64,000 bases of DNA from Candidatus Bruticola sp. (GTDB lineage Bacteria > Vulcanimicrobiota > Xenobia > Xenobiales > Xenobiaceae). The notes below the pieces were generated by a model, which did not search any database, was not told where the DNA came from, and saw only the letters and a program-made list of their open reading frames with translations. Each line of letters starts with the position of its first letter. Within the stretch, counting starts at the first letter, position 1. Positions 23,190-47,577 of the stretch are shown here, in pieces. The stretch lies in assembly GCA_051874695.1 (NCBI GenBank), contig JBJEGC010000022.1, forward strand, positions 5,895 to 69,894, in the 5' to 3' direction. The translations under genes were made by a program, and so were the position numbers.

Positions 23190-23364
23190 ATGAGAGTTGG
23201 CAGGGGTTTTCTTTAGATAATCGAACTGCAGAAACTCTCTATAGGTGTATCTTATTTAGGTTGGGGGGCCCTTGGAGGTTTTTCACGAACTAAGAAGAAA
23301 GACTGCGGTATAGCAACTGGGAGTTAGTGCGCTCTCACGGCTTTTTTGGGAAGAAGGGGTTTGT

Positions 23365-24486: not shown

Positions 24487-24544
24487 GTTTGCAGCGCGGG
24501 CTTGGCGAGCTTAGTCGAGCTGATACTCCAAAGGGAGGTGCACG

Positions 24545-25183: not shown

Positions 25184-25192
25184 GGAGGTACG

Positions 25193-25864: not shown

Positions 25865-25873
25865 AGAAAAAAT

Positions 25874-26638
25874 ATGAACCTGCCTGAATTTGGCTCAAAA
25901 TTGAACAAGGGTTGTAAAATTTTCGCTCTCTCTCTGGCTATGTTAGCTTGCGCCGCTTGCGGTGGAGGAGAGACTGCTGATGATTCTCCCAACTCTCCGG
26001 TTAGCAGTGAAGTAGAAGTTGCTGAAAATGCCGGCGGCGATGCCTCTGGCGGAAGTGCCGTCGAGAATCCGGGCGCTTCTTCTGAAGGTGGTGCCGAGGT
26101 AACTGATGCCGGTGTGGCCAGCTCTGGTGAGGGTACCGGAGATGGTACCGTCGTTGAGCCTGCTGCCGATGAAGGCGCAGCTGCTTCGTCTAATAAGGCT
26201 GCTTCTGAGAAGAAGCCCGCTCCTGCAAGACGCAAAGTTGCCGTTCGTGACCCCTTCCTTAACACGGCATCAGGTCCCGTTGTGGTTTCTAACGCCAGTC
26301 TTGCCAAGATGTCGGCTGCTCAAAGAGCTGCTTTACAGAGAAGTCAGAAGAAAGCTGTAACGAACACTTCTGCTAAAAAAGCCAAAGCTGCTAAAAAGGT
26401 CGTAAAAGTCGTTAAGCCCAATATCATGGTCAATGGTATTTTGAGAGGCAGTAATGGTTACGAAGCCATGATTAGCGACGGCACTCAGACCCGCTTGGTG
26501 GCGGTCGGTCAGAGAGTTGATAAGTATCGCATCTTGGGAATCGATCCTAAGACAAACACTGTTACTATCGGTCTCGGCAAAGAGCATAAGTTCCGCTATA
26601 CCTTGGAAAAAGAGCAGTTCGGAGACGCTAAAAAATAG
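25874..26638 (+). CDS. PilP-like lipoprotein
   Basis: Lipobox LAMLAC/AACGG. Low-complexity Ala/Glu/Ser-rich linker. A C-terminal beta-rich domain lies immediately upstream of the secretin gene. Confidence 0.5.
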   Translation: MNLPEFGSKLNKGCKIFALSLAMLACAACGGGETADDSPNSPVSSEVEVAENAGGDASGGSAVENPGASSEGGAEVTDAGVASSGEGTGDGTVVEPAADEGAAASSNKAASEKKPAPARRKVAVRDPFLNTASGPVVVSNASLAKMSAAQRAALQRSQKKAVTNTSAKKAKAAKKVVKVVKPNIMVNGILRGSNGYEAMISDGTQTRLVAVGQRVDKYRILGIDPKTNTVTIGLGKEHKFRYTLEKEQFGDAKK

Positions 26639-26878
26639 CTCATCTTCTGGATAAAATGTCAGTCTCTTTTGAAAAATTGAAAATAATAAAAAGCACGGCC
26701 AGGCTTTCGAGGGTGTCTGTCCGTTTGCAGGAAGGTCTACCTAATTAAGAAAGGGGCGCACATATTGCTTTGCGCGTGCTTTCCAAATGGTGGATCGCAC
26801 CCTCGGAATGAAACTTATGGTTTCAAGTAATTAAGTTCTTAATTGAACGTGATGGCCAATAGGAGGTGGGTAAAACCA

Positions 26879-32300: not shown

Positions 32301-35300
32301 AAGGCTGCGGCTAAAGTTCAGGCTGAAGAGGTCAACGCGGAGCTTTCTGCTCAGTCTGTAGAACAGCCTGTTGCTGAATTCGACGGCAATGCTTATCAGG
32401 CTGAGTCTCAAGAAGCGGTCAACACTTCAGCGGCCTCAGCAGAATATGGTGCACCTACTGCTCCGGATGGGCAGTTAAGCGGGGAATATGAAGCTTATCA
32501 AGCTGCCGAGCAGGCGGCAAGTGACCCGTCTGCTTCCGAGCTTGGTCTTGCTCAGGTTGCTGTCGGCGCTGTAGCCATTGGAGCTGTCGCTGCTGCTAGT
32601 TCGGCTGTAGCCGACAATCTCGACGATCTCACTCAGGGCGAATATCCAATTGAATCTGGTGCTGAAGCAGAGCAGCTTGGCGGTCAGTACGGTGCCTATC
32701 CTGAAGCGGAACAGGCTAACGAAGGAGAGCAGCTTGGCGGTCAGTACGGTGCCTATCCCGAGGCTGGGCAGGCTGCCGAAGGAGAGCAGCTTGGCGGTCA
32801 GTACGGTGCCTATCCTGAGGCTGAACATGCTGCCGAAGCAGAGCAGCTTGGCGGTCAGTACGGTGCCTATCCCGAAGCTGAACATGCTGCCGAAGCAGAT
32901 ACTTCCGGCGTTGGTTTAGCCAAAGTTGCCGTAGGTGCTGTGGCCATAGGTGCTGTGGCTGCTGCCAGTTCTACCGTTGCTGACAATTTCAGTGGTGCTG
33001 AATTATATGCCGACACTGCGGCTGAGGAGCTGCTTGGAGAGCAGTATGGCGGGGGTGAAAACGTCGAAGCCGAGCCTGCTGCTGTCGTTGAAGAAGAACA
33101 GTTGGGCGCTCATTATAGCGCTTATCCCGAAGCTGAACCTGCTGCCGAAGCAGATACTTCCGGCGTTGGTTTAGCTAAAGTTGCTGTTGGTGCTGTGGCT
33201 ATAGGTGCTGTAGCTGCGGCTAGTTCTACTGTGGCAGACAATTTCAGTGATGCTGAGTTGTACACTGAGGCTGTGTCTGAGGAGCAGTTTAGCGGTCAGT
33301 ACGAGGCTGAGCCCGTTGAAGCTGAACCTGCAGCCGCTGAAGCTGAACAATTAGATGGAGATTACGGAAACTACGCAGATGCAGTTGAGCAGGCTGTTAA
33401 TTCTGGCGTAGGCTTAGCCAAAGTTGCCGTAGGTGCTGTGGCTATAGGTGCTGTGGCTGCTGCCAGTTCTGCTGTGGCTGATAATTTTGGCGATTTAGAG
33501 CAGTATGCATCCTATCCCGATGCAGATGGTGCTCCTGTGAGTGAACCTGTCGCTCAGATAGAAGATCGTCAATTGAATAAGGCAAATGCGAATCCGTCAA
33601 GAGACGTGGCAGAGGAAGTTCAGTCGGTGGAGACTCCTGTCGCCGTTGCCGATGAACTTGATACTTCTTCTAACGATGACAATGCTCAGGTGGTAGAGCT
33701 CGATGAAGCTGGAGCTTCAATGATTGAATTCGTTGAAGTTGACGACGATCGAACCGATGTTCCTGAGATAGTACTTAACGAGCCCGATGAAGTTGCTACT
33801 CCTACTAAGGTTAAAGTTCCCGTTCGCATAAAACGTAGAAAACGCCGCAGCGCTCCTGTTATCGAGCAAATCGAAGAAGTAGAAGAAATTGAGGCTGATC
33901 TCCCTCAAGGAGACGCTGGTTCGGATGCCTCTTCCGGCGTAGGGTTGGCTAAAGTTGCCGTCGGTGCCGTAGCTATAGGTGCTGTGGCTGCTGCCAGTTC
34001 AATGGTCGCGGATAACTTTGCTGCGAATGCTTCCGAACTTTACCAACAGGATGCTCAGTCTGAGTTTATTGAAGCTGAGAATATTCATGAAGAAAGTGCT
34101 GTAGCTGAAGCTGAACCTGAAGAGGTGCAGCCAGAGCCGGAACCTGAGCCGGTTGGCGATGAGCTTTGCTCGCTTTCTGTAGAATCTGAACTGCCTCCGG
34201 AATACTTAAAGGAAGCTCAGCGTCTGCGTGACAAGTTGGTGGGAGCCGATGTTACTACAGCTATAGGTGATTACCGTCGGGCTATTGAGAATTCTCCCGA
34301 AAACTTAGTGCTGCGTACCGATTTGGCTGATGTTCATTTGCGGTTCAGCTTAATGGATGACGCTATTAATCAGTATCGTCAAATTCTGCGCCGTAAACCC
34401 GACTCTGTGGCTTTGCGCCATCGTTTAGCTTGTGCTCACTTGTGGAACGAAGATTTCGATGAAGCTATAAAAGTGTATCTCGATTTGGCTGAACTGCATA
34501 CTCAAAACGAACAGTATGCTGATGTAATCGATGTTTTGCAAACTGTTCTCAGCCTCGATCCTCAACACTTTAAGGCTCGTCGTCTCCTTATTGATCGCTT
34601 TATCGCTCAGGGTAAAGTCGATTTAGCCACTCATCATCTGCGTCAGTTCGTGGATGCTGCTCTCTCTTTAGGTAGCGTAGATAATGCCATCTTCGCCCTT
34701 AAGCAACTTATAGAACTCTCTGATGATCCTGCTTTCGTAGAGCGTCTGGCTAAAGTTTACGAAGAACATGACAATGTCAGTGAAGCCATCTCCTACTATC
34801 AAATTCTTTCTGAACGCTACAGAAAGGAAGAAAAGTGGAGTGAAGCTTTGGCCGTCTGCAGCAAGTTGGTTGCTTTAGAGCCGGACAATTTTGACGAGCG
34901 CCGCCTGCTGATCAGTCTGTATCAGAATCTGGGCCGTTACGATAAGGCAATGGCTGAACAGTTCCATCTGGCCGGACTTTACAAAGAGCAGAACTCCATG
35001 GATGAGGCTGCTGAACTTTACCAGTCGATTGTAGACAAAGATCCTGGTCACTATGCCGCTCGTCGCTGCTTGGTTGACTGCTACCTGAGTAAGGGCAACC
35101 TGCAGGCTGCTATGATGCAAGTTGCTCCTTTAACCGAGCGTTACAGATCTGAGCGTCTCTTCGAGCAGGCTATTGAAATGTATAGAAGCTTGGTCGAGGC
35201 CGATCCGAGTTCTGTAGATTTGCGTGAAGAGTTGCTGGCCTTCTATACCATGGGAGAACAGCGCGAGAATATGCTCAGTGAGCTGCTCACTCTTAACGAA

Positions 35301-36065
35301 ATTCATGAAAACAAAGGCGAGTACAGAGATTCGGTTCGTTACTTGCGCCGCGCTATCGAGTTGGCGCCGGATCGTGCCGATCTGCACTGCCGTCTGGCTA
35401 AGCTTTATGATGAGCAGTTGCAAAGCATCAGTGGAGCTATGCAGGAATACAGAAAAGTATTCGAGCTCAATCCAGGTGATGCGGAAGCTATGAGCCGCTA
35501 CGCTCAGCTTTTGGTATCCCAGCGCAAGCCCAAAGAAGCTGCAGCCGTCCTGCTTAAATTGCAATCAATTAATAAAGAAGTTGGTAAGCAGGCCATCAAC
35601 ACCATCTGCAAGTCCTTCTTGGACAAGATCGCTCAAGACGGTGCTGATTTAGCTACCAGATATAGCTATGGAGAGCTGTGTTACTACCTCAACCGCATTA
35701 GCGATGCTATCGAGCAGTTCCAGAAGACTCATGCCGACAGAGACTTAGAGCTGCGCTCCCGCAACATGTTAGGTTTGTCCTTTATAAAGATGCCTCGTAT
35801 GCGTGAAATGGCTATCCGTCAGTTCCGCTTAGGTCTTGATACTAAAGGACATGCGGAGCAAGATTACCTCGAGCTGCGCTATAACTTGGCTATGTTGTTC
35901 TACCAGACCGACCGCCTCCAAGAGGCTCTGACCGAATTCAAGAGCATTTTGGCCTTTGACATTACTTACCGCGATGTCGAAGCCAGAGTTAAAGATTTGC
36001 AGGCTAAGATCGCTGCCGGCGGAGGCGCTTCTAAAGGCAGAGGCGTTCCTCCCCGCCGCAAATAG
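29394..36065 (+). CDS. giant (2223 aa) TPR protein with repetitive disordered centre and five repeated hydrophobic segments
   Basis: Single uninterrupted ORF. TPR-like units occupy the N-terminal ~330 aa and the C-terminal ~600 aa. The centre is Gly/Lys-rich, then Gln-rich 14-aa repeats, then acidic EQLGGQYGAYPEA repeats. It holds five copies of GVGLAKVAVGAVAIGAVAAASSxVADNF. Confidence 0.7.
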   Translation: MTYVADTIEGLMQEARAFADSRSWDQAIESYSRVIDLDADNDEACRSLANIYALRGMFKSVISTYLRLMHIYVARSDMDNAMAVANYVLLLEPASIDVRSELINMYRYRGDTAEVVSRSLDLARLYTELDEGDRSIELLQAVLNDDPNNADICRELAEMYIQYGQVERGASQYHQVADLYQANGQLDKACDALERILVVNSGDSGAVFHLGELYSMMERWEDAERQFRSALKFDFENLDVMFALGNVCQRKGDLDQASLAYRKIVMIAPDYVLAQERLGEIYHMQNNIELAIKAYLTAGGLYVRSNDSEHAIALYQRVIFLDPNNPAATRELTNLGAPVVGNDGGIQPLVKNKAATKSSRSESRREKKDGERKTRSGLLPKGGGGVRSGLVAKGGGSKPGLGGKPVLGGDGEAEGAPRPGLMRAGLKASGGGKPSLGGKPMLGGKRVLGSRKKKAEEAKEEAPVEHTAISLAKEPENDQSAAVENVAANDGEVQAAEVVAVESGVDEVMPTPEHVESSESQPEVGTVAEAVPEVGAAIPESAGDIHSEMTPEHNPEAFSASEHQVPLEDNIYADGNQQYVGEDQQFGGDMQQYAGEAHQFGGDMQQYAGEAQQFGNDMQQYAGEVQQFGSDMQQYADDSQQFGGDMQQYVGAEQGQGHEYYQEPYAAQTGEFYGEHADGTGHFEQPTESHEAYYQQEGTAAEYGEQHQYEDAAYGGENYSDNGYGFDMHRPLIMVPEGELIVPAPILYLERTDLYEAICQAITEVPDPSVIPWEPLRVIDEAAIEEKLAQQSAEAARAAAEAEEAARAEAEKEQAASSSVEGFDFSGGVNLKGVSGTGLRRKYSKGESKGSSSSGRSRLSGNQSLSERVARMRAESAELEESASEHRAISGINRHHQDKSQKKEKGRSIVGGISRPINQVIEEANQANQANGTAPQTYADQAPEIPRPELTATRSRSSLSERIKRARQSKAAAKVQAEEVNAELSAQSVEQPVAEFDGNAYQAESQEAVNTSAASAEYGAPTAPDGQLSGEYEAYQAAEQAASDPSASELGLAQVAVGAVAIGAVAAASSAVADNLDDLTQGEYPIESGAEAEQLGGQYGAYPEAEQANEGEQLGGQYGAYPEAGQAAEGEQLGGQYGAYPEAEHAAEAEQLGGQYGAYPEAEHAAEADTSGVGLAKVAVGAVAIGAVAAASSTVADNFSGAELYADTAAEELLGEQYGGGENVEAEPAAVVEEEQLGAHYSAYPEAEPAAEADTSGVGLAKVAVGAVAIGAVAAASSTVADNFSDAELYTEAVSEEQFSGQYEAEPVEAEPAAAEAEQLDGDYGNYADAVEQAVNSGVGLAKVAVGAVAIGAVAAASSAVADNFGDLEQYASYPDADGAPVSEPVAQIEDRQLNKANANPSRDVAEEVQSVETPVAVADELDTSSNDDNAQVVELDEAGASMIEFVEVDDDRTDVPEIVLNEPDEVATPTKVKVPVRIKRRKRRSAPVIEQIEEVEEIEADLPQGDAGSDASSGVGLAKVAVGAVAIGAVAAASSMVADNFAANASELYQQDAQSEFIEAENIHEESAVAEAEPEEVQPEPEPEPVGDELCSLSVESELPPEYLKEAQRLRDKLVGADVTTAIGDYRRAIENSPENLVLRTDLADVHLRFSLMDDAINQYRQILRRKPDSVALRHRLACAHLWNEDFDEAIKVYLDLAELHTQNEQYADVIDVLQTVLSLDPQHFKARRLLIDRFIAQGKVDLATHHLRQFVDAALSLGSVDNAIFALKQLIELSDDPAFVERLAKVYEEHDNVSEAISYYQILSERYRKEEKWSEALAVCSKLVALEPDNFDERRLLISLYQNLGRYDKAMAEQFHLAGLYKEQNSMDEAAELYQSIVDKDPGHYAARRCLVDCYLSKGNLQAAMMQVAPLTERYRSERLFEQAIEMYRSLVEADPSSVDLREELLAFYTMGEQRENMLSELLTLNEIHENKGEYRDSVRYLRRAIELAPDRADLHCRLAKLYDEQLQSISGAMQEYRKVFELNPGDAEAMSRYAQLLVSQRKPKEAAAVLLKLQSINKEVGKQAINTICKSFLDKIAQDGADLATRYSYGELCYYLNRISDAIEQFQKTHADRDLELRSRNMLGLSFIKMPRMREMAIRQFRLGLDTKGHAEQDYLELRYNLAMLFYQTDRLQEALTEFKSILAFDITYRDVEARVKDLQAKIAAGGGASKGRGVPPRRK
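31130..31350 (+). repeat. in-frame tandem repeat, ~7 x 42 bp (DMQQYAGEAQQFGG)
   Basis: Near-identical 42-bp units are visible in the sequence. Confidence 0.8.
32541..34020 (+). repeat. five dispersed copies of an ~80-bp unit encoding the hydrophobic segment GVGLAKVAVGAVAIGAVAAASS(A/T/M)VADNF
   Basis: Copies start near 32541, 32907, 33163, 33406 and 33936. The peptide is conserved, while the DNA differs at many synonymous positions. Confidence 0.8.
32665..32885 (+). repeat. in-frame tandem repeat, 4 x 60 bp (EQLGGQYGAYPEAEQAxEG)
   Basis: Almost identical 60-bp DNA units. Confidence 0.8.
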
Positions 36066-36103
36066 TGGAACTCTTAAGCGCCTTTATTGGAATCGGAGAA
36101 AAA

Positions 36104-39100
36104 ATGACAGATCGTAGCAATATGGAGTCCCTTATTCAGCAAGCCGATGATTTAGTTGGCGCTGGTAATTGGGAAGAGGCCCGAGAAATATATAAGCAAG
36201 TGGTCAGTCAGGACCCTAATAACGTGGAAGTGCGCGAACACGTGCTTGCATCTGCAAAACGAGCATTGGCTTTCCAGGTTATTATCGGCCAGGATATGGC
36301 TCTGGCTGAGCTCTTTGCGGCTAACGGTGAAGCTGAGAAAGCTATCGATAGCTACAAAGATATCCTTAATTTAGAGAAGATGGCTCAAAGTCAGGGTATC
36401 AGTGGTGCCCAGCTGAGTGAAATTCAGAACTTAGTGGCTCAGGTTAAGCCGGAAATTTTCGCTAAAACCGGTACTATTTATCTGAATGAAGGCCGCTACA
36501 TGGAAGCCATTAAGTGGTTGCGGCCCAGTTTAGATTTGGATCCTAGCCGTTGGGATACGCATATGGCTATGGGACGCGCCCTGATGATGGACAACAAGAA
36601 CAAGGAAGCCATTTCCGAGTTCCAAGAAGTTGTTCGTTTGGCCAGTACTGAAGCTGCTAGTGCTTATGAACTGCTGGGTGAGGTCTTCCTGCGTATTGGG
36701 CGCTCTCCGCAGAACACGATCGTTTGGTTCCGTAATGCAGGTGAACTTTTTGTGCAGCGCAATGAGTTTACCGATGCCATTAGAGCTTATGAGCGTATTT
36801 TGCAATTTGAGCCTCGCAACAAAGATATTCTAGTTCGCTTAAGTGACATCTATACCGCCGAAGGCTATACCGAAAAAGCTTGTGCTGCTTACTTTACTCT
36901 GGCTCAAATTTTTGAGGAAGAAGGCTTCTCCGACAAAGTAATGAGTTACTTGGAGAAGACAATTGAGTTCAATCCTGCTGATGATGAAGCCAGAACGAAG
37001 CTGATCGCTATTTATGGCGAAGCCTTGGAAAACGATCCCTCCAATGTTAGTCTCAGAGTTCGCCTCATTGAGAATCTCCTTAAAAAAGGCATGTTTTCTG
37101 AAGCGGCGGAAAATCAGCTCGAACTGGCCAAGATCTATATCGACAAGGGCAGCATAGATGACGCCATCGCCACTTTGCGCAAACTTATCGATATTGAGCC
37201 GGATAATATTGAGGCCCGTCGTTTACTGGGCGATCAGTACCGGCGCAAAGATATGGGTACTGAGGCTTTGTCTGAGTATCAGGAAGTGGTACGCCTGTAT
37301 CAAGAGAACGGCTTTGCCGATGAGGCTATTGAGTTCCAACATCAGCTGGTCGAGATGTTCCCCGAAACTTCGGATTTGCGCTATCAAGTTGCTTTGTCTC
37401 TGCGCAGTCAAGGCAACCATGAGGGGGCTGTCAGAGAGTTGGACCGTCTGGTACGCAGCAATCCCGATGACATGATTGCCATGAACTATCTGGCTGAGGA
37501 GTATGCGGCTTTAGGCCATTGGGATAAGGCCATAGGGGCTTACCATGAGATACTTAATCATGATCCTGCCCGCTACGATGTGCGCAAGCGTTTAATTAAG
37601 TATTACGTTGAGCAGAGCTTTTATGAAGAGGCTATGGCGGAGATTCGTTTACTGCCTGATGACGACTTTGAAAAGAGAGCTTTTGCTTACAAGATCATTG
37701 AGCGCTGTTTGGAAGAAAACCGCACCGACGAAGCTGAAGCTTATATTCATGGTCTTGAGCCGGATGACGAACGTCTGGTTTCGTTCCACAAAGAGCTGCT
37801 TAAACGTTACCTCGATTTAGGAGAGCTTGTTCAGGCTGACAGGGTTGTAACTTTAATTCCTCGTTCTGATAAAGAACGTAATAAGTTGATTACTCGCCTG
37901 ATGGAGTTGTATCTTGGCGCCTCCAATATGGAAAGTGCAGTAGCGTTGATCGATCGTTTGCCTGACGACGATTCCCTGCGCCTTTCTTTTCAGCGTCGCC
38001 TGATTAATTCTTATCAAGAGATGGGACGCTTTGAAGATGCGGCTACTGAAATGGCGAAGCTTCCTCCCGGCGATGAGTCTTATCACGATTTCTCCATGCG
38101 TCAGATCTCCGGTCTTATGCAGTCTGGCAGACTCAACGATGCCATGAACTGCATCAAAGAGCTCAGTGAAGACGACCCTGCCCGCAACTCCTTTATGGGG
38201 CAGCTTATAGAAGCTTATTTGCAGGATGGCAATATCGATAAAGCTGCTCAGGAAGTGGCCGGTCTCCCTCCGAAGACTGAAGTTTGTTCCAGATATATGC
38301 GCCGCATTATTCAGGCCTATTTGAATAATAACCGTTTTGAAGAAGCTGAGCGCGATATTATGCTTCTCGATTCTAACGATCCTGAGAAGCTGTCGTTCTT
38401 GCGTATTTTGCTCCAAAAGTACGAAATTAACGGTTTAGTAGATAACCTTAGAGAGCTTGTGGTTAAGTTGCCTGACGGCATGCCTGAAAAGCAGCAGTAT
38501 CTGGACGGTATAGTGCATTCTTTCTTGACTGCCGGCAATATGGCGAAGGCGCGACAAGAAATTTACAGTTTAGCCGAGACTGTGTCGGAAAAAGGCAATC
38601 ACTTAGAAGCGGAGCGTCTCTATTCCGATCTTTTGGCTTACCATCCCGTCGATGTAGAAATCAGGATGCGGTTGTGCCAAGAAGTGGCTGCTCAAGGTAA
38701 GTTAGAGCGTGCTTCTGAAGGATTGTTGGTGTTGGCCGGACGTTTCCGTAAAGAGGGCAATGCTACATCGGCGGTAGACATTTATACTCGTCTTTTAGAA
38801 ATTGATCCGGGTAATCTCAATGCTCGCTACCGTTTGGGTGAAATTTGGGCTCAACATGGCCAGACTGCTCAGGCTTTAGAGCATTTCTCTTTCCTGGCTA
38901 GTGAGTATTTGCGGCAGAACTTGAATGAGGTCGCTCAAAAAGTTTTGCATCGCATTCTCGATTTGGACAGTAAGGACATTGTTCACCGCCGTCAGCTTAT
39001 CACTTTGTTGGCCAGAAACATGCGTCTGGAAGAAGCCATAGAAAATTATCGGGTTCTTTTGGGCATACATCTGGACAGGGGAGAGCTCGAAGAAGCTTTG

Positions 39101-40519
39101 ACTTGCGTGCGTGAAGTCAAGCTGCTGCAGCCTTTGAATTTGGAGCTCAGCCAGTGTTTGGGCGCTATGTTCCTGAAGGCCGGTTACTTAGAAGAAGGAC
39201 AGCAACTGCTGGAAGAGCTCATTCCTGCTTACAAAGGGCGCTCCGATCATGAAAACGTGGTTAAAGTGTTCCGAACCCTTTCTGAAGCCTTCGATGCTAA
39301 TCAGCAATGGGAAGCTGCTTTGGAGTATTTGGAGCGTGTTGGTGACGAACAGGTTGAGGCTGATGAGTGGAGGGAAGCTCAATCCAACTATTTGAAGGCC
39401 TTGGAAGAGTACTTGCGCCGTGGACGTCGAGAGTACACGGATACTCTCTTTGTTAAGTTGATTGACGGTTTCTTCCGTCATAAGAACGTCAATGAGGGTG
39501 TAGAGCTGCTGAAGGAAGTTGAGGAGCGTTTCGTTAGGGCGGGTCGAACCGATTTAGCTCTGATCGTAAAAGATCGCCTGGCTTCTATCATGGAGCGGCT
39601 TGAAGAATGGAGCGAAGCTCTCGATGTGGTCATTCTGATTGCTGATACCAACTTGGAGCTGGGGGATGTCGAGCAGGGTATTGCTTACTATCGTCGCGGC
39701 GTCGATTTGGCTGTCAATCATGATATGACCGAGCGCGGCGTTGAGCTGGCTTTCAAAATGGCCGACTTACTCATTAACTATCGGGGCATTGAGGCAGCTC
39801 GTCCGATTTTCGATGAGGTCAGGGTTTACGATAACCAGTCTCCGGAAACCATTGAGCGCATTGCCGATATTATGTTTGAGCGTGGTTACCGCGGTGAAGC
39901 TTGCCCTATCTACAAGGAAGTTTTGGAGTTAGAACCTGGACGCGCTCAGTCTCTTTCCCGCGTGTCTATTATTTACGCCTTAGAAGGTAAACTGGAAGAA
40001 GCGGCCGGCTTGGCTCGTCAGATATTCGCGAAGGGACTCGTTGGCAAAATCACTGAGGAATACGGCAAAGCTCTTTGCTGCAAGCCAAACGATGCCGTTT
40101 ACCACATTAAAATGGGCGAATTCTTTAGGCAGCTTGGTTTCTTGGAAGAAGCTATCGATGAGTTCCATAAAGCTATTACCGATCCGGCTAAGGTTTTGGT
40201 CGCAGTTAATGGTTTAGCTATGGCCTTCCAAGAAAAGGGCTACCGTGACTTAGCTATTAAACAGCTGCAGAAAACCATGGAACAGCCTGGTTTCAGCGAT
40301 GAAGAACTCCTCGATCTGCGCTATAATTTAGCTATTATTCTCCAGGCTGAAGGCCGCTACGATGACGCCATTCAGGCTTTCCAAGAGTGCTACGCCGTAG
40401 ATATTAAGTACCGTGATGTATCTGAGCGCTTGAGTGAACTCTTTGAAAAGGTTGGAGACGGAGTGCCAGGTGAGGGCAGTGGTTACGATGATTACTACTA
40501 TTTCGAAGGAGAGGAGTAG
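36104..40519 (+). CDS. giant all-TPR protein (ORF-track length 1484 aa; ~1471 aa from ATG 36104)
   Basis: TPR-like 34-aa units run throughout, with no TM segment. The ATG at 36104 has GGAG 5 nt upstream. The ORF-track start (GTG 36065) overlaps the upstream stop, so the two genes are translationally coupled or co-transcribed. Confidence 0.7.
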   Translation: MTDRSNMESLIQQADDLVGAGNWEEAREIYKQVVSQDPNNVEVREHVLASAKRALAFQVIIGQDMALAELFAANGEAEKAIDSYKDILNLEKMAQSQGISGAQLSEIQNLVAQVKPEIFAKTGTIYLNEGRYMEAIKWLRPSLDLDPSRWDTHMAMGRALMMDNKNKEAISEFQEVVRLASTEAASAYELLGEVFLRIGRSPQNTIVWFRNAGELFVQRNEFTDAIRAYERILQFEPRNKDILVRLSDIYTAEGYTEKACAAYFTLAQIFEEEGFSDKVMSYLEKTIEFNPADDEARTKLIAIYGEALENDPSNVSLRVRLIENLLKKGMFSEAAENQLELAKIYIDKGSIDDAIATLRKLIDIEPDNIEARRLLGDQYRRKDMGTEALSEYQEVVRLYQENGFADEAIEFQHQLVEMFPETSDLRYQVALSLRSQGNHEGAVRELDRLVRSNPDDMIAMNYLAEEYAALGHWDKAIGAYHEILNHDPARYDVRKRLIKYYVEQSFYEEAMAEIRLLPDDDFEKRAFAYKIIERCLEENRTDEAEAYIHGLEPDDERLVSFHKELLKRYLDLGELVQADRVVTLIPRSDKERNKLITRLMELYLGASNMESAVALIDRLPDDDSLRLSFQRRLINSYQEMGRFEDAATEMAKLPPGDESYHDFSMRQISGLMQSGRLNDAMNCIKELSEDDPARNSFMGQLIEAYLQDGNIDKAAQEVAGLPPKTEVCSRYMRRIIQAYLNNNRFEEAERDIMLLDSNDPEKLSFLRILLQKYEINGLVDNLRELVVKLPDGMPEKQQYLDGIVHSFLTAGNMAKARQEIYSLAETVSEKGNHLEAERLYSDLLAYHPVDVEIRMRLCQEVAAQGKLERASEGLLVLAGRFRKEGNATSAVDIYTRLLEIDPGNLNARYRLGEIWAQHGQTAQALEHFSFLASEYLRQNLNEVAQKVLHRILDLDSKDIVHRRQLITLLARNMRLEEAIENYRVLLGIHLDRGELEEALTCVREVKLLQPLNLELSQCLGAMFLKAGYLEEGQQLLEELIPAYKGRSDHENVVKVFRTLSEAFDANQQWEAALEYLERVGDEQVEADEWREAQSNYLKALEEYLRRGRREYTDTLFVKLIDGFFRHKNVNEGVELLKEVEERFVRAGRTDLALIVKDRLASIMERLEEWSEALDVVILIADTNLELGDVEQGIAYYRRGVDLAVNHDMTERGVELAFKMADLLINYRGIEAARPIFDEVRVYDNQSPETIERIADIMFERGYRGEACPIYKEVLELEPGRAQSLSRVSIIYALEGKLEEAAGLARQIFAKGLVGKITEEYGKALCCKPNDAVYHIKMGEFFRQLGFLEEAIDEFHKAITDPAKVLVAVNGLAMAFQEKGYRDLAIKQLQKTMEQPGFSDEELLDLRYNLAIILQAEGRYDDAIQAFQECYAVDIKYRDVSERLSELFEKVGDGVPGEGSGYDDYYYFEGEE

Positions 40520-40532
40520 GGCTGAGTTTTAC

Positions 40533-41984
40533 ATGAATTGCTCTGTTACTCCATATCGGAAGGTTTTGCGCAGAAGCGTAATTGCTGCCGGTGCAGCGAT
40601 GGCTCTCTTCTGCCTTTCCTGCAGAGCATGGGCCCAGGAAGTCGGCGGCGAAGCTGCTGCTGGTGAGGGCGGGCTCGTGCAAACTTTAGCTTCTCATATG
40701 CAGGTGCTACAGATAGTCTGCGGAGTGTCTGCAGCCATTTTTGTAGTCTGTCTGTGCTGGGAAGTTTGGGTCTCCATTCAGCTGCATCAGAATGGAGGTG
40801 TGCTTCCTGAACCTGAGCCGCAGGAAGAAGAGCCTGAACCTGAAAAGCCTTCCCGCTTTGAGGCTCCTGTGCTGGACGAAACAGAAGATCCGTTTAAGGC
40901 GCTGTTAAATAAGGCCAGCTCGTCTGAGGATGCTAATAAAAATGAGGGAGGAAGTAAGAAGAGTTCTGGGTCTTCCTCTGCTTCTGCACCTTCGTCTTCC
41001 GATTCTGCTGAATCGGGGAGCGGTTTCTCCGGCAGTAAGAAATTTGAACCTTACAAAAATGTCGAACCTATTAAGAGTGGCGATCGTATAACTCGCCGTG
41101 AGCAGGATAATCCGTCTTTTGATGGCGATGCGACTATCGCTGTTGGAGCGGGGTTAGTTCCTCCTAAGGTCGGTGGTTTTGGCGTAGGTACTGGCGGAGC
41201 TGTTGGATTTGGCACTCCTCCTAAACCACCCGCACAGCCTGCTGCTGTCGGATTTGGAGCTCCTTCCAAGCAACATAGTATAGGTTTTGCTCCGCCGAAG
41301 TCTCCCGCCTCCGGTTCGACTGGCTTTGCTCCGCCGAAGCCTCCCGTTTCTGGTCAGGCCGGTTTTGCTCCGCCGAAGTCTCCCGTTTCTGGTCCGGTAG
41401 GCTTTGCTCCGCCGAAGTCTCCCGTTTCCGGTCCGGCCGGTTTTGCTCCGCCGAAGTCTCCCGTTTCTGGTCCGGTAGGTTTTGCTCCGCCGAAGTCTCC
41501 TGTTTCCGGCCCTGTAGGCTTTGCTCCGCCGAAGCCTCCCGTTTCCGGCCCGGCCGGTTTTGCTCCGCCGAAGCCTCCCGTTTCCGGCCCGGCCGGTTTT
41601 GCTCCGCCGAAGTCTCCTGTTTCCGGCCCAGCCGGTTTTGCTCCGCCGAAGTCTCCTGTTTCTGGCCCAGCCGGTTTTGCTCCGCCGAAGTCTCCTGTTT
41701 CTGGCCCAGCCGGTTTTGCTCCGCCTAAACACGGAGGTTTAGGCGTTGGTCCGGGAGCATCCTCAAGTCGTTCTGCTGCGGTTCCTACCAATGTGGGAGC
41801 GGCTCGTCCGACAGTTCCTTTGGGGGCAGCCAGGAGCGCTGCCGGTTCTGCTGACGCCGCTAAAACAGGAGATTCTTGGAAAGCTTTAGCCAGCGGTATG
41901 GAGAATAAAGGTATGGCTCACGGAGCGCCCCGAAGCCAATCTTTAGATATTAAGCGCAGTGGTTTCCCCCCTGCTAACCCTTAA
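40533..41984 (+). CDS. signal-peptide/TM protein with 12 tandem 13-aa proline-rich repeats (GFAPPKSPVSGPA)
   Basis: The ATG at 40533 gives MNCSVTPYRKVLRRSVIAAGAAMALFCLSCRAWA/QE (signal peptide). A second hydrophobic helix follows (VLQIVCGVSAAIFVVCLCWEVWV). Then come an acidic/Ser-rich region, the repeat array, and a Gly/Ala-rich C-terminus. Confidence 0.6.
   Translation: MNCSVTPYRKVLRRSVIAAGAAMALFCLSCRAWAQEVGGEAAAGEGGLVQTLASHMQVLQIVCGVSAAIFVVCLCWEVWVSIQLHQNGGVLPEPEPQEEEPEPEKPSRFEAPVLDETEDPFKALLNKASSSEDANKNEGGSKKSSGSSSASAPSSSDSAESGSGFSGSKKFEPYKNVEPIKSGDRITRREQDNPSFDGDATIAVGAGLVPPKVGGFGVGTGGAVGFGTPPKPPAQPAAVGFGAPSKQHSIGFAPPKSPASGSTGFAPPKPPVSGQAGFAPPKSPVSGPVGFAPPKSPVSGPAGFAPPKSPVSGPVGFAPPKSPVSGPVGFAPPKPPVSGPAGFAPPKPPVSGPAGFAPPKSPVSGPAGFAPPKSPVSGPAGFAPPKSPVSGPAGFAPPKHGGLGVGPGASSSRSAAVPTNVGAARPTVPLGAARSAAGSADAAKTGDSWKALASGMENKGMAHGAPRSQSLDIKRSGFPPANP
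41283..41735 (+). repeat. tandem 39-bp repeat x12 encoding GFAPPK(S/P)PVSGP(A/V)
   Basis: Directly visible in the sequence. Units differ at a few synonymous and A/V sites. Confidence 0.85.
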
Positions 41985-42013: not shown

Positions 42014-42907
42014 TTGTATATCCCTAAAGGCAACATATTAATCGAAGACGTAGAGTTGTCGTATGACAATATGCGCGAAATGCAGGCTAACTTATCCAAT
42101 GACGGCTTCACCGGCTATGTCAAGTTAGACTTAGAAAATTCTTCTGCTTATGTTTTTTATGATAATGGCACTGTGGTCCAGGTTTTAGAGGTTGATAACG
42201 CAACTAGTCTGGTTAGTTTGCAATTGGAACAGCGCCTTCTTAATCGTATTAAGCTCGACAACATAAAATGCTCTAGCTACGTGACTTCTAAGCGTATTGT
42301 CAACGTACTGACAGGTATTTTTGCCTTCCAACCTCTTTATCTTGATTATGAAGCCAAAAAGCGTGATATGCCTCGCATTTTGGAAAAACTCCAAGATGGA
42401 GGTTACAGTGGTCTAATGAAGCTGTCTACTCGTGAGGGTACCTATTATTTGGCAATCGATAATGGCGATATTGTGCGCGATCGTTTTTGCTACAACTATG
42501 GGGAAGTTCTCAGTGGTACCGAGGCTATCGATCGCATACTCAATTTTGAGTTCGATAGCGAAGGAGCCACTATGAGCATCTTTGCTGAGCGCGTTGAAGA
42601 GATCGACATTAAGCGCAGTGCTAAAGAAGAGGAACTTGAGAAGATCAAGACTCTGATTGTCAAATCTGATGGCGGTTTCCTGCGGGCTAACGATGTTGTC
42701 AAAGTTGATAACTATATTGTGCGCGAGTGGAATATCGCCGATATTAAGTCTACTTTCTCTGTCGAGATTGAAACTCCGGACGGCTCTCTCTATGAATACA
42801 GATGTCAGGCCGGTTCTAAGTTCGGCGATCGTGCCGGTTTAACGCCTGCCATGATGAAGAAGATGGGATTAGCTGAAGGAGATAATATCTCTATTCGTCC
42901 TCTGTAA
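42014..42907 (+). CDS. protein with two DUF4388-like domains
   Basis: Two segments fit the DUF4388 pattern G.L....L..L......G.L.L......YF.DG.IV. They are GNILIEDVEL...DGFTGYVKLDLENSSAYVFYDNGTVV and ILEKLQDGGYSGLMKLSTREGTYYLAIDNGDIV. The TTG start has GGAGG 8 nt upstream. The domain call relies on recalled family patterns. Confidence 0.45.
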   Translation: MYIPKGNILIEDVELSYDNMREMQANLSNDGFTGYVKLDLENSSAYVFYDNGTVVQVLEVDNATSLVSLQLEQRLLNRIKLDNIKCSSYVTSKRIVNVLTGIFAFQPLYLDYEAKKRDMPRILEKLQDGGYSGLMKLSTREGTYYLAIDNGDIVRDRFCYNYGEVLSGTEAIDRILNFEFDSEGATMSIFAERVEEIDIKRSAKEEELEKIKTLIVKSDGGFLRANDVVKVDNYIVREWNIADIKSTFSVEIETPDGSLYEYRCQAGSKFGDRAGLTPAMMKKMGLAEGDNISIRPL

Positions 42908-43009
42908 ACTTAATGATGCCGGTGCCTCTCTCTATGAAATTTTTTCTGATTAGGGAGGCCCCCGGCTTCTGGCTCCATGAAATAATAGGTGTTTGGAAGG
43001 AGAGAGAGC

Positions 43010-43369
43010 ATGTCTCAACTGACATCTCTGCTGCAAAGTTTTCAGCGTTTAGATGGGGTTCTGGGCGCTTGTATTCTGAGCAAAGATTGTGAAATATTGG
43101 CGGAAAATTTAAACGATTCGGTCAAAAATGATGTCGCAGCCGTTTCTTTTAAGGAGTTCTTGCCTAAAGTAGAAGCTCTCGTGTCCGGATTGGGCGTTGC
43201 CGGGGTTGACAGGCATCATCTGATTCTCGATGATAAACAGCTTATGATAGAAGTTTTAGTCGGCGGGGCTATGCTGGTTGTTTTTACCAGCAGCGACAAC
43301 AGCAATCAAGGGCGCGTGCGCTTAGAGATTCGCAAGAGCAAAAAGAATATAGAAGCAGCTTTGGCTTAG
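43010..43369 (+). CDS. Roadblock/LC7 (MglB-like) domain protein
   Basis: About 119 aa with the roadblock pattern LDGVLGACILSKDCEILAENL...AAVSF...LGVAGVDRHHLILDDKQLMIEVLVGGAMLVVFTSSDNSNQGRVRLEIRK. AGGAG lies 7 nt upstream. Confidence 0.6.
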   Translation: MSQLTSLLQSFQRLDGVLGACILSKDCEILAENLNDSVKNDVAAVSFKEFLPKVEALVSGLGVAGVDRHHLILDDKQLMIEVLVGGAMLVVFTSSDNSNQGRVRLEIRKSKKNIEAALA

Positions 43370-43460
43370 CTGGTTTTTGGGGTCGAAATTCGGTTTATAA
43401 GCTGCAGATTGAATTTTGTCTGTGATAATTAAATGAGGAATAGTGAGGCCGGATACTAAA

Positions 43461-45101
43461 ATGGAAGTAATGACTACTCTGGAAAGGCAAATTCAGAGAA
43501 ATCGCCGTTTACTGGAAAGTGATCCTAATAATGTCGATTTGATGCTTACTTACGCGCTGGATTGCCTGCGTCGCGATTTGCGTTTTGAGGCTTTAGTTAC
43601 TTTCCAGAAGGCAATTCAACTGAAAGATACGGCTGATGCTCATCTGGCTTTGGCGCAAATTTTCTATTTGCAGTCTCTTTATCGCGAATCTTATGAAGAG
43701 CTGCGCCGTGTTTTTAAACTCGATTCCATAAATATAGGCGCTCATGTTTTACTCCATCTGTTGAAGGATAAAGAGAGCATTCCCGACGACTTAGTGCCTC
43801 GTTTAGCTTTTGTGCCATCCCGTTCTGCTTTGGGAGATGAAATGATCAACGCGAGCAATGAGCGCGATCTATATCGTCGTGAAGTTCAGGAATATGAGGC
43901 TATTGCGGCTAGCGGTGTCAACGATCCCGAGCCTATTGTTCTTTATTGTTTGGGGGAAGCTAAAAAGCGCGTTGAGCGCATAAATGTCAACTTGAAAATA
44001 ATGAGCCGCTGGGAGCTTTTGGCTATTGATATGCCAGGCTTCCTGCCTGAAGAGAAGAGCGACTTAGTTGATAAATCTGAGGCTGCTTCCTCTGCTGAGT
44101 CTGAGGAGGTGGAGTCCGTCCAACCTCAAGAATCCTCTGTTGAAATAGAGGCTGTTGCGGCTGTGGAAACTGAGGCTGAAATTGATGCTGAAGCTGAAGA
44201 AAGCCACACTAAGAAAACTAAGAAGTCTAAGCGCCGTCGCGCCAAGGAACGCCATACTTCAGCCGTTGCTGAGACTGAGCAAGTTGCTGCTGTGGAAACC
44301 ACAGAGCCTGCGGCTGAGGTGGAAACTGAGGCTGCTGTAGCTGAGGAGACAACTGAAGCGGAAATTTCTAAAACTGCAGAAACTCTTGATACCACTAGTA
44401 TTGAAGCAGAGCAGCCTGTTGCAGTCAAGATTGAACAACCTGTTGCTGAAGATGAGAGCACCGTTTCCGAAGTTGCCGATATTGTCGAGGAGGTTCCTGC
44501 TGTTGCAGTTACTCTCGATAGTGAGTCTCCCAAGAATGAAGTGGCAGAAGTTGTTTCATCCGAGATTGAGGTGCCCGCTGCTGATCTGTCCGTTGTAAAA
44601 GACGAACAAACTGAGGATAAGGCGACTGCAACTGAGCCTGAGTCTGTATCCGATGATAGTACAACAGAGGTAATAGAAGTTTCTGAATCTGAAGTCGCTG
44701 TCGCCGAAGAGCCTGCAGCGGTGGAGGAAGTTCCTGAACTGCCTTCTGAAGAGGAGTTGGCCAAAGAGGCGTCCTTTAATGAATTTTTGGCTTCCATGTG
44801 CAAAATTAAAGGCAGTGTGAGAGCTATGGTTTTGACCGCTCGCGGACGTTTGGCTGCTATAGAGGGAGAGTTTGAACAGCCTGAAGAGACTGCTGCCAGA
44901 GTCGCTGGTTTCCTGAAAGGTGTCTGCAGTGACGGCAAGATGCGTCTAATTACTTTTGTCAGTGAGAGCAAGAACAGTTCAGTCATTCTGCAGCAGATTA
45001 ATGACACTTATTATATGTTGGTAGACGGACGGTCAGTCACCTTGGGCGTTTTGCGCCAACGTGCTGAGCGATGCAAAACTGAATTGGCTGGTTTGTGTTG
45101 A
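43461..45101 (+). CDS. TPR - acidic low-complexity linker - Roadblock/LC7 domain fusion protein
   Basis: N-terminal TPR-like repeats and a ~230-aa Glu/Ala/Val/Thr-rich linker. The C-terminal ~110 aa fit the roadblock pattern (GSVRAMVLTARGRLAAIEGEFEQPEETAARVAGFLKG...SSVILQQINDTYYMLV). Confidence 0.55.
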   Translation: MEVMTTLERQIQRNRRLLESDPNNVDLMLTYALDCLRRDLRFEALVTFQKAIQLKDTADAHLALAQIFYLQSLYRESYEELRRVFKLDSINIGAHVLLHLLKDKESIPDDLVPRLAFVPSRSALGDEMINASNERDLYRREVQEYEAIAASGVNDPEPIVLYCLGEAKKRVERINVNLKIMSRWELLAIDMPGFLPEEKSDLVDKSEAASSAESEEVESVQPQESSVEIEAVAAVETEAEIDAEAEESHTKKTKKSKRRRAKERHTSAVAETEQVAAVETTEPAAEVETEAAVAEETTEAEISKTAETLDTTSIEAEQPVAVKIEQPVAEDESTVSEVADIVEEVPAVAVTLDSESPKNEVAEVVSSEIEVPAADLSVVKDEQTEDKATATEPESVSDDSTTEVIEVSESEVAVAEEPAAVEEVPELPSEEELAKEASFNEFLASMCKIKGSVRAMVLTARGRLAAIEGEFEQPEETAARVAGFLKGVCSDGKMRLITFVSESKNSSVILQQINDTYYMLVDGRSVTLGVLRQRAERCKTELAGLC

Positions 45102-47577
45102 TTTGAAAGCAGAGCGCGTTATTTTTAACATAAGCACTTACGGTGCTTTGGCTGTTGTTGGTGGTATTTTGGCCTTTCCTGCCGTTACAGCGGTGTCACA
45201 GGCCTACAGTAACGGCGCGCTCAGCTCTGCCCCCGTTTCTTCTCTCAGTCTGTTCGACTTTTTGAGACATGTTGTCCTAGATTCCGATTCAGGGGCCATG
45301 ATGGGAATGGGCAGAGGGGCTCTGGTTATGCTCATTGGAGTGGCCTCTCTGCTTTGGTTGTCTGTACCTCGCCTGCGCACTGAAAAGGGTGTTTTTGTTG
45401 GCATTGGTTTAAGTCTACTGCTTTTGTGGGGGGCCCTTTCTGCTTACTTCAGCGTCTGCGCTTATGAGAGCATGCTCGATTTATGTTCCTACGCTTCTTC
45501 CGTCAGTTTCTTTTTGTTGATAGCTGCCCTTAGCAGAGAGTTCTCTCTAAGGAGATGCCTTGGGGGAAAAAGTGGCGGTGAGGTTCAGCAGTCTGCAGAG
45601 CGCACTGCCAAAGCGGCTGTTTCGTATTTGCAGCTGATGACTTTTGCTGCAATAGCAGGGGCATGGCTGCTTTTTTTATGCAATCCTGTGGGCGATGGCT
45701 TGTCCGGCAGCTTTTACAATAAGAATTTACTCGCCGTATTTCTGCTTTTAACTCTTCCTGTAGGAATAGTTCGTCTATTTGAGCACTGCCGGGAGGCAGA
45801 AATCCATTATATAAGTGGTCTTAGTGCCTCTTTAGTTGCGTCAATTTTTTGTCAGATTTCTTTTATCACTGCAAATATAAGTAGTCTGTTTTTAACTTAC
45901 AGCCGTTCTTGCTTAATATTAGCTTGTTTTGCTCTGTCTGCTTCTTTTTGGCTAATTGTTTATCTTTCTAAAAATAGTCGTGAAGCTTGGCGTGGGGCAG
46001 CTTGGGCCGCCTTAAGTTGTCTGCTGTTGATCTTTTCAGTTTTTCTCTTTTCACGCTCGTTTTATGTCGCTTTAGTTTGCCTGGCCGCATCAGCAGTGGT
46101 TGTTTACAGGTTTTTCTTGAGTGGTGTCAAGGGCGGTAAGTTGATGGCGGCTCTTTTATGTGCTTCGGCTGTTTTATTTTCGTTGGTTGTCCTTTTTGTG
46201 CAGAGCGATTCGATGGCCGCTAAAGGAAGTCGCCATTTACAAGATTTGGGGGCCAAAGGCGATACCTCTTTAACATCCAGATGTCAATTCTATGAAGCTT
46301 CTCTAAAAATTACTGGGGAACATCCTCTGCTGGGAGTAGGGGCCGGTAATTTTGAGCGCTATTATCCTCTGTTTCAAACTGATTTTCGCTGGTTTTCTAA
46401 GCGTTCTCATTCTTTGAGCTGCGATTTGTTGGCTGAAGGAGGGGTGCTCTCGTTTGTACTTTTTTATGGACTGCTTGCTTTTGTTTATGTGCAGACCGTC
46501 AAAAAGGTCAGATCTGATGCGCCGCTTGTGGCTCAGCTTCGTTTGGCCTGTGCTTTAGGAGCTGCCCTTCTACTTATTCATGCCCAGTTAGATATAGACA
46601 GCCATGTTATGGTACTGCCTCTTTGGGGAGCTGCTTTGCTTGGTTTGGCTTGGGGAATTCCCAGCCGGGATGAGTGTTTATCTAATACTCTGGATGAGTG
46701 TGGTTTGTGGAGCAGTGGCAAACGTTACTTTATTAGTTATAACTGCATTCCCGCCGCGGCAGTTATCTTGGTTTTTTGCTTTTCAGGACAGGCCTGGGGA
46801 GGGCAATATTACAGTACTATAGGTAAAATTTATCTTGATATGGATGAACCGGAGAAGGCCAGGCAGTGTTATAACTGGGCTTCTGAATACGATCCCAATA
46901 TCGGTGAGTACTGGCGTCAAATGGCCGCTCTGGCCTTAAACCAGTGTAAGAGCGAAGATAAAGCTAAGTCGGTAGCCGTTAGCATACGTTTTTGTGCTAT
47001 GCAGGCTGCGCGTCTCGATCCCCATAGAGCTTCTGTACAGAGTATACTGGGACAGGGATTGGAGCTGTCTGACGATTTGCAGGGAGCCGAACAATGTTAT
47101 AAGCGCGCTTTAGAATTGGATAGTAAAAATTCTCCTGATATTTATAGCAATTTGGCTAGAGTATATTCGAAGCAAGGACGCCTTAAAGAGGCTAAGTCTG
47201 TACTCGATCGGGCTTGGTCGGCTTTTCCGGAAGAGTTGCTGCATCAGAATTATTTCTTTGACTTTCGTTACAAGCTGATAAATAATGAAATGGCTTCTTG
47301 TTGTTTAATGCGTTTTGAAATTGCTGCAACTGAAGGCAACATGGCAGAAGCAGAACTCAGCTTGTCCAGGGCGTGCAGGTTTGATAGCTCTCTTAAGAAT
47401 AGTTTGAAAGATGCAGCTGTCTATTTTCTAGAGCAGAGCAAGATTTCTGCTGCAGCGGGACAAATTAGCAAGGCAGAAAAGGAGAAAGCCAAAGCTGTAT
47501 GCTTCCTAAAGGTGGCTGCTTCTGCTATGCCGCAGGACGACAATATAAAAGGTTTGCTCCGGCTAACGGAAAGGTAA
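45061..47577 (+). CDS. O-antigen ligase-like (Wzy_C) polytopic membrane protein with C-terminal TPR domain
   Basis: More than 10 TM helices. The Wzy_C signature is present (EHPLLGVGAGNFERYY...RSHSLSCDLLAEGGVLS). The C-terminal ~280 aa are TPR-like. The start is uncertain because it overlaps the upstream gene. Confidence 0.65.
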   Translation: MLSDAKLNWLVCVDLKAERVIFNISTYGALAVVGGILAFPAVTAVSQAYSNGALSSAPVSSLSLFDFLRHVVLDSDSGAMMGMGRGALVMLIGVASLLWLSVPRLRTEKGVFVGIGLSLLLLWGALSAYFSVCAYESMLDLCSYASSVSFFLLIAALSREFSLRRCLGGKSGGEVQQSAERTAKAAVSYLQLMTFAAIAGAWLLFLCNPVGDGLSGSFYNKNLLAVFLLLTLPVGIVRLFEHCREAEIHYISGLSASLVASIFCQISFITANISSLFLTYSRSCLILACFALSASFWLIVYLSKNSREAWRGAAWAALSCLLLIFSVFLFSRSFYVALVCLAASAVVVYRFFLSGVKGGKLMAALLCASAVLFSLVVLFVQSDSMAAKGSRHLQDLGAKGDTSLTSRCQFYEASLKITGEHPLLGVGAGNFERYYPLFQTDFRWFSKRSHSLSCDLLAEGGVLSFVLFYGLLAFVYVQTVKKVRSDAPLVAQLRLACALGAALLLIHAQLDIDSHVMVLPLWGAALLGLAWGIPSRDECLSNTLDECGLWSSGKRYFISYNCIPAAAVILVFCFSGQAWGGQYYSTIGKIYLDMDEPEKARQCYNWASEYDPNIGEYWRQMAALALNQCKSEDKAKSVAVSIRFCAMQAARLDPHRASVQSILGQGLELSDDLQGAEQCYKRALELDSKNSPDIYSNLARVYSKQGRLKEAKSVLDRAWSAFPEELLHQNYFFDFRYKLINNEMASCCLMRFEIAATEGNMAEAELSLSRACRFDSSLKNSLKDAAVYFLEQSKISAAAGQISKAEKEKAKAVCFLKVAASAMPQDDNIKGLLRLTER

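Follow-up and report, generated by a model that had tools for sequence, protein, structure and literature searches.

Three co-directional open reading frames (ORFs), separated by short gaps, occupy positions 42014-45101 on the forward strand of a 64,000-nucleotide stretch of Candidatus Bruticola sp. DNA (contig JBJEGC010000022.1), which was analyzed at full length and is referred to here as the window. ORF1 specifies a protein with two PATAN/DUF4388-like repeats and a predicted C-terminal double-psi beta-barrel (DPBB), ORF2 specifies a standalone Roadblock/LC7 protein that resembles MglB, and the ORF3 protein joins tetratricopeptide repeats (TPR) to a second Roadblock domain through an acidic linker (Table 1). 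No gene for a partner GTPase accompanies the trio, either in the window or in related loci. The three proteins are proposed, with a probability of about one half, to form the core of a cytoplasmic scaffold-type regulator of the type IVa pilus machine in Eremiobacterota of the UBP9/Xenobia type, a regulator that would have derived from a PATAN-MglB-MglA module.

The ORF1 reading frame opens with a TTG start codon that has a GGAGG motif upstream. The protein matches the Pfam DUF4388 model (PF14332) in two stretches with 27.5 bits, which passes the gathering cutoff of 25, and the halves of its N-terminal 200 residues align to each other (hhalign E 5e-5). The tandem DUF4388-like protein that a preliminary description of this DNA had proposed from the sequence alone is thereby borne out. 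DUF4388 corresponds to the PATAN domain (bioRxiv 10.1101/2021.06.11.447907). The same model is matched by 10 of the 14 members of the ORF1 family, and a PKGN motif near the N-terminus is invariant. An AlphaFold2 model of ORF1 built from the family alignment (predicted local distance difference test score, pLDDT, 89.9; predicted template modeling score, pTM, 0.82) comprises a pair of similar alpha/beta repeats together with a long helix and, at the C-terminus, a barrel of ~85 residues, and the predicted fold of this C-terminal part matches solved double-psi beta-barrel domains of the Cdc48-N/VAT-N type. Two PDB searches with the ORF1 model, in which the DPBB domain dominated the matches, returned no solved homolog of the PATAN repeats. 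A Roadblock-like character for these repeats was considered and rejected (hhalign probabilities ≤4%). An exhaustive hidden Markov model search with the ORF1 profile recovered ~45 full-length relatives and >100 proteins that carry the N-terminal tandem module only. Distant relatives of this module likewise match DUF4388. Two of them, P0177 and P0205, also match Pfam DUF2226, an uncharacterized archaeal family, which hints that the DUF2226 and PATAN/DUF4388 families overlap.

The likeliest start of ORF2 is the ATG at 43010, which is preceded by GGAGAG. As a single sequence the protein scored 16.7 bits against Pfam Robl_LC7 (PF03259), under the gathering cutoff of 23, and a phmmer search of the PDB found nothing; the C-terminus of ORF3 had no Pfam match. 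Family profiles were needed because single-sequence searches for Roadblock in Pfam and NCBIfam were either sub-threshold or empty. The profile of 16 ORF2 orthologs matches solved structures of Roadblock (E 5e-8) and MglB (E 7e-7) proteins as well as CvnB5 (E 4.5e-5), with a weak match to MglC (E 0.0055), and most ORF2 family members have a precomputed PF03259 hit. The ORF3 C-terminal family profile identified the 7yh1 Roadblock structure (E 5.6e-7), MglB (2e-6), CvnB5 (3.5e-5) and LAMTOR2 (0.007) in the PDB, and this family aligns with that of ORF2 at an hhalign probability of 98.6% (E 1e-15). The L003 ortholog of ORF3 has a weak precomputed Robl_LC7 hit, and the ORF3 Roadblock profile, when used in a word-indexed search, gave only five short, uninformative matches. 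The ORF2 structure modeled from 108 homologs (pLDDT 90.3) is predicted to have the canonical a1-b1-b2-a2-b3-b4-b5-a3 order and a five-stranded sheet that separates alpha2 from alpha1/alpha3 as in the Roadblock fold. The preliminary description had staked its standalone and TPR-fused Roadblock proteins on the existence of profile matches to this domain; family profiles and structure confirm both domains, although the single sequences fall below threshold.

The N-terminus of ORF3 as a single sequence reached Pfam TPR_11 at a sub-threshold E of 0.007. In contrast, the profile of its family matches consensus TPR proteins (CTPR3, E 2e-10) and identifies the region as TPR. The helical segment that follows the repeats has the conserved motifs IPxDL...FVPSR and EPILxY. 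The linker comprises 237 residues, among which 69 are Asp/Glu and 17 are Lys/Arg, and is probably disordered. Its length varies in relatives, in which ORF3 spans 326-559 residues.

The distribution of conserved residues in ORF2 was assessed across the 108 sequences. The alpha2 helix is the least conserved of all the structural elements (mean 1.03 bits), whereas conservation peaks in alpha3 (2.82 bits), which carries a near-invariant, basic NLGRIRLEIRKxKK motif. No variation occurs at N99, G101, R102, R104 or E106, and conservation exceeds 90% at R108, K109 and E115. In a profile alignment with Myxococcus xanthus MglB, the invariant R104 coincides with R115 and K109 (93%) with K120, both of which belong to the KRK patch of MglB; the alpha1 position equivalent to MglB K14 is not conserved. 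Helix alpha2, on the two-helix side of MglB, is the MglA-binding surface and is without a catalytic residue (PMC3199381). The KRK patch belongs to the four-helix side; it is required for MglC binding and polar localization, but the GTPase-activating protein (GAP) activity is independent of it (PMC10329633). MglC possesses a basic KRR patch on alpha3 that binds RomR at its Glu-rich C-terminal region, located after a disordered stretch (PMC10329633).

The housekeeping protein Era (11659-12570) is the sole GTPase encoded in the window, and no GTPase is evident in ~5 kb beyond either end. A tblastn search with a genuine outgroup MglA yielded no match in the window and the loci of the lineage (633 kb in total; 30 related loci), and no ORF that combines a P-loop with NKxD occurs in any related locus. 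The presence of an mglA-type GTPase within a few genes, which marks the MglB family, was observed neither in the window and its flanks nor in ~30 related loci. The preliminary description was therefore correct that the trio has no GTPase partner beside it. The exhaustive search also located two outgroup tandem-PATAN proteins that are encoded 2-4 genes from an MglB protein (167-168 residues), followed by a canonical 194-residue MglA with the hallmarks PGxSGKTT, RTxFFDF, TVPGQ and NKRD. These outgroup PATAN-MglB-MglA loci are the GTPase-containing counterpart of the cassette. As a GTPase is lacking from the window, its flanks and the related loci whereas the outgroup possesses MglA, the missing linked GTPase is a real feature of the lineage. 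The outgroup loci (L032, 2920-12765; L033; L034, 1598-4727) contain several PATAN genes, one of which is fused to a receiver, and further carry dCache-HAMP sensors and a sigma-54 activator along with the 167-168-residue MglB and 194-residue MglA.

The premise of the preliminary description that MglB-like genes usually sit beside mglA holds only weakly: among 749 MglB homologs, 421 are coupled to mglA and 328 are orphans (PMC4316618). Moreover, PATAN-MglB neighborhoods were reported in 2006, and PATAN genes are found near some mglA genes. With orphan MglB proteins common and such neighborhoods long recognized, the trio is less unusual than had been assumed. A literature survey for Bruticola, Xenobia, UBP9 or Eremiobacterota in connection with MglA or pili produced nothing relevant. 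In an alternative of the classical MglB type, ORF2, either alone or with the ORF3 Roadblock domain, would be a GAP, or part of a platform for GAP and guanine nucleotide exchange factor activities, that serves an unlinked MglA- or SofG-like GTPase in the manner of MglC in Myxococcus. This arrangement seems unlikely on balance. Coupled mglB-mglA pairs co-evolve within four genes, whereas no GTPase lies within 10 kb in ~30 loci from >20 species; the helix that would bind MglA is the element of ORF2 that is least conserved; and the 119-residue ORF2 is without the C-terminal extension found in the 160-170-residue MglB proteins of the outgroup.

The gene order TPR-TPR-unknown-ORF1-Roadblock-(response regulator-histidine kinase)-TPR..Roadblock-Wzy_C recurs in ~30 loci from >20 species, including L030, the locus of the most divergent ORF2 homolog found. 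Profile searches of all ORFs detected one standalone and one C-terminal Roadblock domain, and none elsewhere, in 28 of 29 loci. As the standalone and fused Roadblock genes co-occur so consistently, a heterodimer of the ORF2 and ORF3 Roadblock domains is plausible from the sequence data. The relatives of ORF1 derive from metagenome-assembled genomes (MAGs) labeled UBP9, Eremiobacterota, Vulcanimicrobiota or 'bacterium', with a few under other labels, and these MAGs were recovered from Hadza gut, rumen and bioreactor material. A Candidatus Bruticola sp. MAG encodes a 'hypothetical protein' with 100% identity to ORF2, and across gut species ORF1 and ORF2 are 91-96% and 72-90% identical, respectively. 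In deeper relatives (L001, L003, L004, L016 and L028) a CheY-like receiver of ~125 residues and a GAF-PAS-HisKA-HATPase kinase of ~530 residues are encoded between the Roadblock genes, and the phospho-acceptor motifs are intact in both proteins. The pair is reduced to a 234-residue HisKA-HATPase kinase core in L005/L021 (10567-11271), and is absent from the clade of the window in which just a 73-nucleotide spacer separates the Roadblock genes. The pattern looks like a stepwise loss of input. One or two uncharacterized genes on the opposite strand are inserted between ORF1 and the Roadblock gene in L016 (11015-13259, reverse strand) and L001 (11019-11765, reverse strand) and, because of these insertions, the ORF1-ORF2 junction is not strictly fixed. 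The absence of the two-component pair in the window clade and its contraction in L005/L021 are what might be expected if the trio were a decaying, non-functional remnant from which a GTPase and, in the gut clade, also the regulator and kinase had been lost. This explanation is very improbable, as all three ORFs are intact, the invariant motifs are retained throughout the families, the gene order persists in >20 species and the identity across gut species is high.

The trio is located near the 3' end of one long same-strand block that consists of the pil genes, two giant TPR genes, a repeat-protein gene, ORF1-3 and a Wzy_C gene. The pil genes were assigned from the Pfam domains T2SSE with MshEN, T2SSE, T2SSF, N_methyl, Peptidase_A24, PilM_2, PilN, PilO and Secretin; the lipoprotein gene in the cluster is possibly pilP. 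In L027, an Armatimonadota-labeled MAG that is the most distant relative, the cassette is present with pilQ directly upstream as in the window. The giant TPR genes are kept in all related loci, and neither an N-terminal signal peptide nor a transmembrane segment was found in their products. The preliminary description had missed this pilus context, and likewise the ORF1 DPBB domain and the loss of the two-component pair.

We infer the physical interactions within the proposed pilus regulator, and its output on the pilus, as follows. ORF2 and the Roadblock domain of ORF3 would dimerize via alpha2/beta3, as Roadblock domains do. The basic alpha3 of ORF2 would then probably bind an acidic partner; a candidate partner is the Glu-rich ORF3 linker, by comparison with the RomR tail and the KRR patch of MglC; by the same analogy, the second Roadblock domain and the linker of ORF3 are both possible ligands of ORF2. 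The TPR head of ORF3 may tie the Roadblock dimer to the giant TPR scaffolds that are encoded upstream. The large TPR protein SgmX of M. xanthus is reported to connect MglA to pilus activation (PMC7668184, PMC7519303). ORF1 would link the complex to the pilus motor, analogously to the PATAN domain of PixE from Synechocystis, which attaches to PilB1 and PilC at their N-terminal domains and suffices for output (bioRxiv 10.1101/2021.06.11.447907). In deeper relatives the CheY-like regulator and the cytoplasmic GAF-PAS kinase would supply the input, and in the gut clade, which has lost both genes, the module may be constitutive or fed by another input. The preliminary description had offered two alternatives, a GTPase encoded elsewhere or a different partner for the Roadblock proteins; based on variability of alpha2, invariance of alpha3 and the receiver-kinase pair in relatives, we lean towards the second. 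In a more far-reaching version, the TPR-tethered Roadblock heterodimer and the tandem-PATAN/DPBB adaptor would constitute a switch that is independent of small GTPases and acts directly on the PilB/PilT ATPases, under two-component control ancestrally and constitutively in the gut clade. Such a switch is rather unlikely. If correct, it would provide the first demonstrated case in bacteria of a Roadblock pair that controls a secretion-type ATPase instead of a Ras-like GTPase, and it would fit an old proposal that Roadblock proteins are general regulators of nucleoside triphosphatases.

Several points weigh against the proposed pilus regulator. The M. xanthus MglC protein is an unlinked Roadblock protein, yet works in the MglA pathway. 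The GTPase search in the host genome covered ~74 kb, and an unlinked mglA gene may reside elsewhere in the genome. The poor conservation of alpha2 does not prove that GTPase binding has been lost, as the MglB interface is hydrophobic, tolerant and without a catalytic residue. Linkage to pilB-pilQ is visible only in the window and L027, as the 10-kb flank of the other loci ends within the first TPR gene. Furthermore, linkage of the cassette is just as tight to the Wzy_C gene and, among relatives, to genes for glycosyltransferase and radical-SAM proteins. In a further alternative, the cassette might regulate the Wzy_C-TPR protein and downstream sugar-modification genes, for surface polysaccharide or pilin glycosylation, instead of the pilus motor. 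The Wzy_C-TPR gene, always the last of the conserved cassette, invariably follows ORF3, and genes for radical-SAM/B12, GT4 glycosyltransferase and epimerase proteins come after it in relatives. The pilin O-oligosaccharyltransferases PglL and TfpO likewise have a Wzy_C domain, and the Wzy_C-TPR protein may glycosylate pilin. Nevertheless, control of glycan modification is improbable as the principal role: PATAN domains have no experimentally established output other than that on PilB and PilC, the pil genes lie directly upstream in the same orientation, and no Wzy-type protein is known to be under Roadblock control.

The cassette was compared with characterized systems. The MglA/MglB/MglC-RomR module of M. 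xanthus, for which SgmX is the TPR effector on type IV pili, similarly has an MglB-like fold and two different Roadblock proteins. Within that module, MglB is bound by MglC via a conserved acidic patch (F25-D26-I28). The basic alpha3 residues of the cassette align with R115 and K120 of MglB, a Glu-rich region comes, as in RomR, after a disordered stretch, relatives have a CheY-type receiver, large TPR proteins are encoded next to the pilus genes, and PATAN genes are nearby. In contrast with that module, the cassette has no linked mglA, conservation is lacking in the MglA-binding helix, an acidic linker joins one of the Roadblock domains to TPR, and the PATAN partner carries a DPBB domain. The PatA-type (PATAN-REC) phototaxis regulators of cyanobacteria, namely PixG, PixE and PilG, are likewise PATAN/DUF4388 proteins encoded with type IV pilus genes, and their output is provided by the PATAN domain, which binds PilB1 and PilC. 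However, ORF1 differs in having two PATAN-like repeats and a C-terminal DPBB, with neither a receiver nor an alpha-clip insertion; the receiver is a separate gene in relatives of the cassette. Actinobacterial conservons, which comprise the CvnA kinase, CvnB Roadblock, CvnC DUF742 and CvnD GTPase proteins, share the combination of Roadblock and histidine kinase with the deeper relatives, but the kinase of the latter is a soluble GAF-PAS protein paired with a CheY-like receiver, and this pair is missing in the window. A conservon identity was rejected: no locus contains a DUF742 protein or a GTPase, and the kinase is confined to deeper relatives. The eukaryotic Roadblock heterodimer LAMTOR2/LAMTOR3 (p14/MP1) of Ragulator, a platform for Rag GTPases, shares only the fold and has no sequence-level relationship.

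Other features of the neighborhood were noted. Within the larger of the giant TPR proteins, TPR_A (29394-36065; 2223 residues), the central ~1,200 residues are non-TPR, especially those encoded by 32394-34193. This center includes at least five copies of a hydrophobic Gly/Ala/Val segment (GVGLAKVAVGAVAIGAVAAASSxVADNF) with acidic AEQLGGQYGAYPEAE repeats in between, DNA tandem repeats at 31122-31345 and 32660-32899 match it, and the middle part of the protein has no BLAST match in relatives. The proline-rich repeat protein has two transmembrane-like segments followed by ~13 tandem copies of GFAPPKSPVSGPA, and a DNA repeat at 41283-41725 in its gene consists of 11.4 copies of a 39-nucleotide unit with 90% matches. 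Its orthologs keep the position but possess other proline-rich repeats, for example, EEDPWKALL. The Wzy_C protein has 15 transmembrane-like segments. A Peptidase_C39_2-like gene (window 47713-48471, reverse strand) is the most conserved neighbor of the cassette with 69-99% identity across loci. A scan of 28.8-47.8 kb for promoters and terminators detected sites that were no more numerous than in shuffled sequence. Further upstream, positions 6840-7859 of the forward strand encode a 339-residue protein with the Pfam domains LIM (E 1e-6) and DA1-like (E 3e-4), both of which are essentially eukaryotic; the gene adjoins a Ser/Thr protein kinase gene (7928-8836, forward strand).

Table 1. Coordinates of the pilus genes, the cassette and the protein domains discussed in the text.
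Feature	Position	Strand	Description
Type IVa pilus genes	16701..28867	+	pilB, pilT, pilC, pilin, pilD, pilM, pilN, pilO, lipoprotein, secretin pilQ
Two giant TPR proteins	29394..40519	+	2223 and 1484 aa; encoded after pilQ and before the cassette; Pfam TPR, E to 1e-65
Membrane-anchored proline-rich repeat protein	40434..41984	+	Likely start ATG 40533; directly upstream of ORF1
ORF1	42014..42907	+	297 aa; two PATAN/DUF4388-like repeats, long helix, predicted C-terminal DPBB
ORF1, PATAN/DUF4388-like repeat 1	aa 1-104
ORF1, PATAN/DUF4388-like repeat 2	aa 105-200
ORF1, long helix	aa 194-209
ORF1, DPBB	aa ~212-297
ORF2	43010..43369	+	119 aa; standalone MglB-like Roadblock/LC7 protein; longest ORF from GTG 42989
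ORF3	43443..45101	+	TPR-acidic linker-Roadblock fusion; alternative ATG 43461
ORF3, N-terminal region (aa 1-200)	43443..44042	+	~2.5 TPR repeats, then conserved helical segment
ORF3, acidic linker (aa 201-437)	44043..44753	+	Glu/Ala/Val/Ser-rich
ORF3, C-terminal Roadblock/LC7 domain (aa 438-552)	44754..45101, including stop codon	+	115 aa; from family profile
Wzy_C (O-antigen-ligase-like) polytopic membrane protein	45061..47577	+	C-terminal TPRs; Pfam Wzy_C (E 1e-17) and TPR

The PATAN-PATAN-DPBB fusion, the fusion of TPR, acidic linker and Roadblock, and the obligate pair of Roadblock genes appear to be new, as do the fixed place of the cassette at the end of the pilus cluster, the lineage-wide lack of a linked GTPase and the ancestral two-component pair. 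The orphan state of MglB-like proteins and the association with PATAN are already known. The analysis provides annotation for three 'hypothetical' genes of an uncultured gut lineage (UBP9/Xenobia), with a practical impact that is modest pending a cultivable host or a heterologous assay. Among the MglB-like Roadblock proteins of bacteria, approximately 44% are orphans that lack an adjacent GTPase, and very few of them have been investigated. The cassette is a clean, conserved orphan case that is tied to type IV pili, a PATAN adaptor, a second Roadblock protein, TPR scaffolds and, in relatives, response regulator and kinase input. The predictions that follow are that the basic patch on alpha3 serves as the working surface, that either the second Roadblock domain or the Glu-rich linker is its ligand, and that the target of the PATAN protein is PilB or PilC. 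The cassette could thus reveal whether Roadblock scaffolds act without a G protein, and makes the long-open function of orphan MglB-like proteins directly testable.

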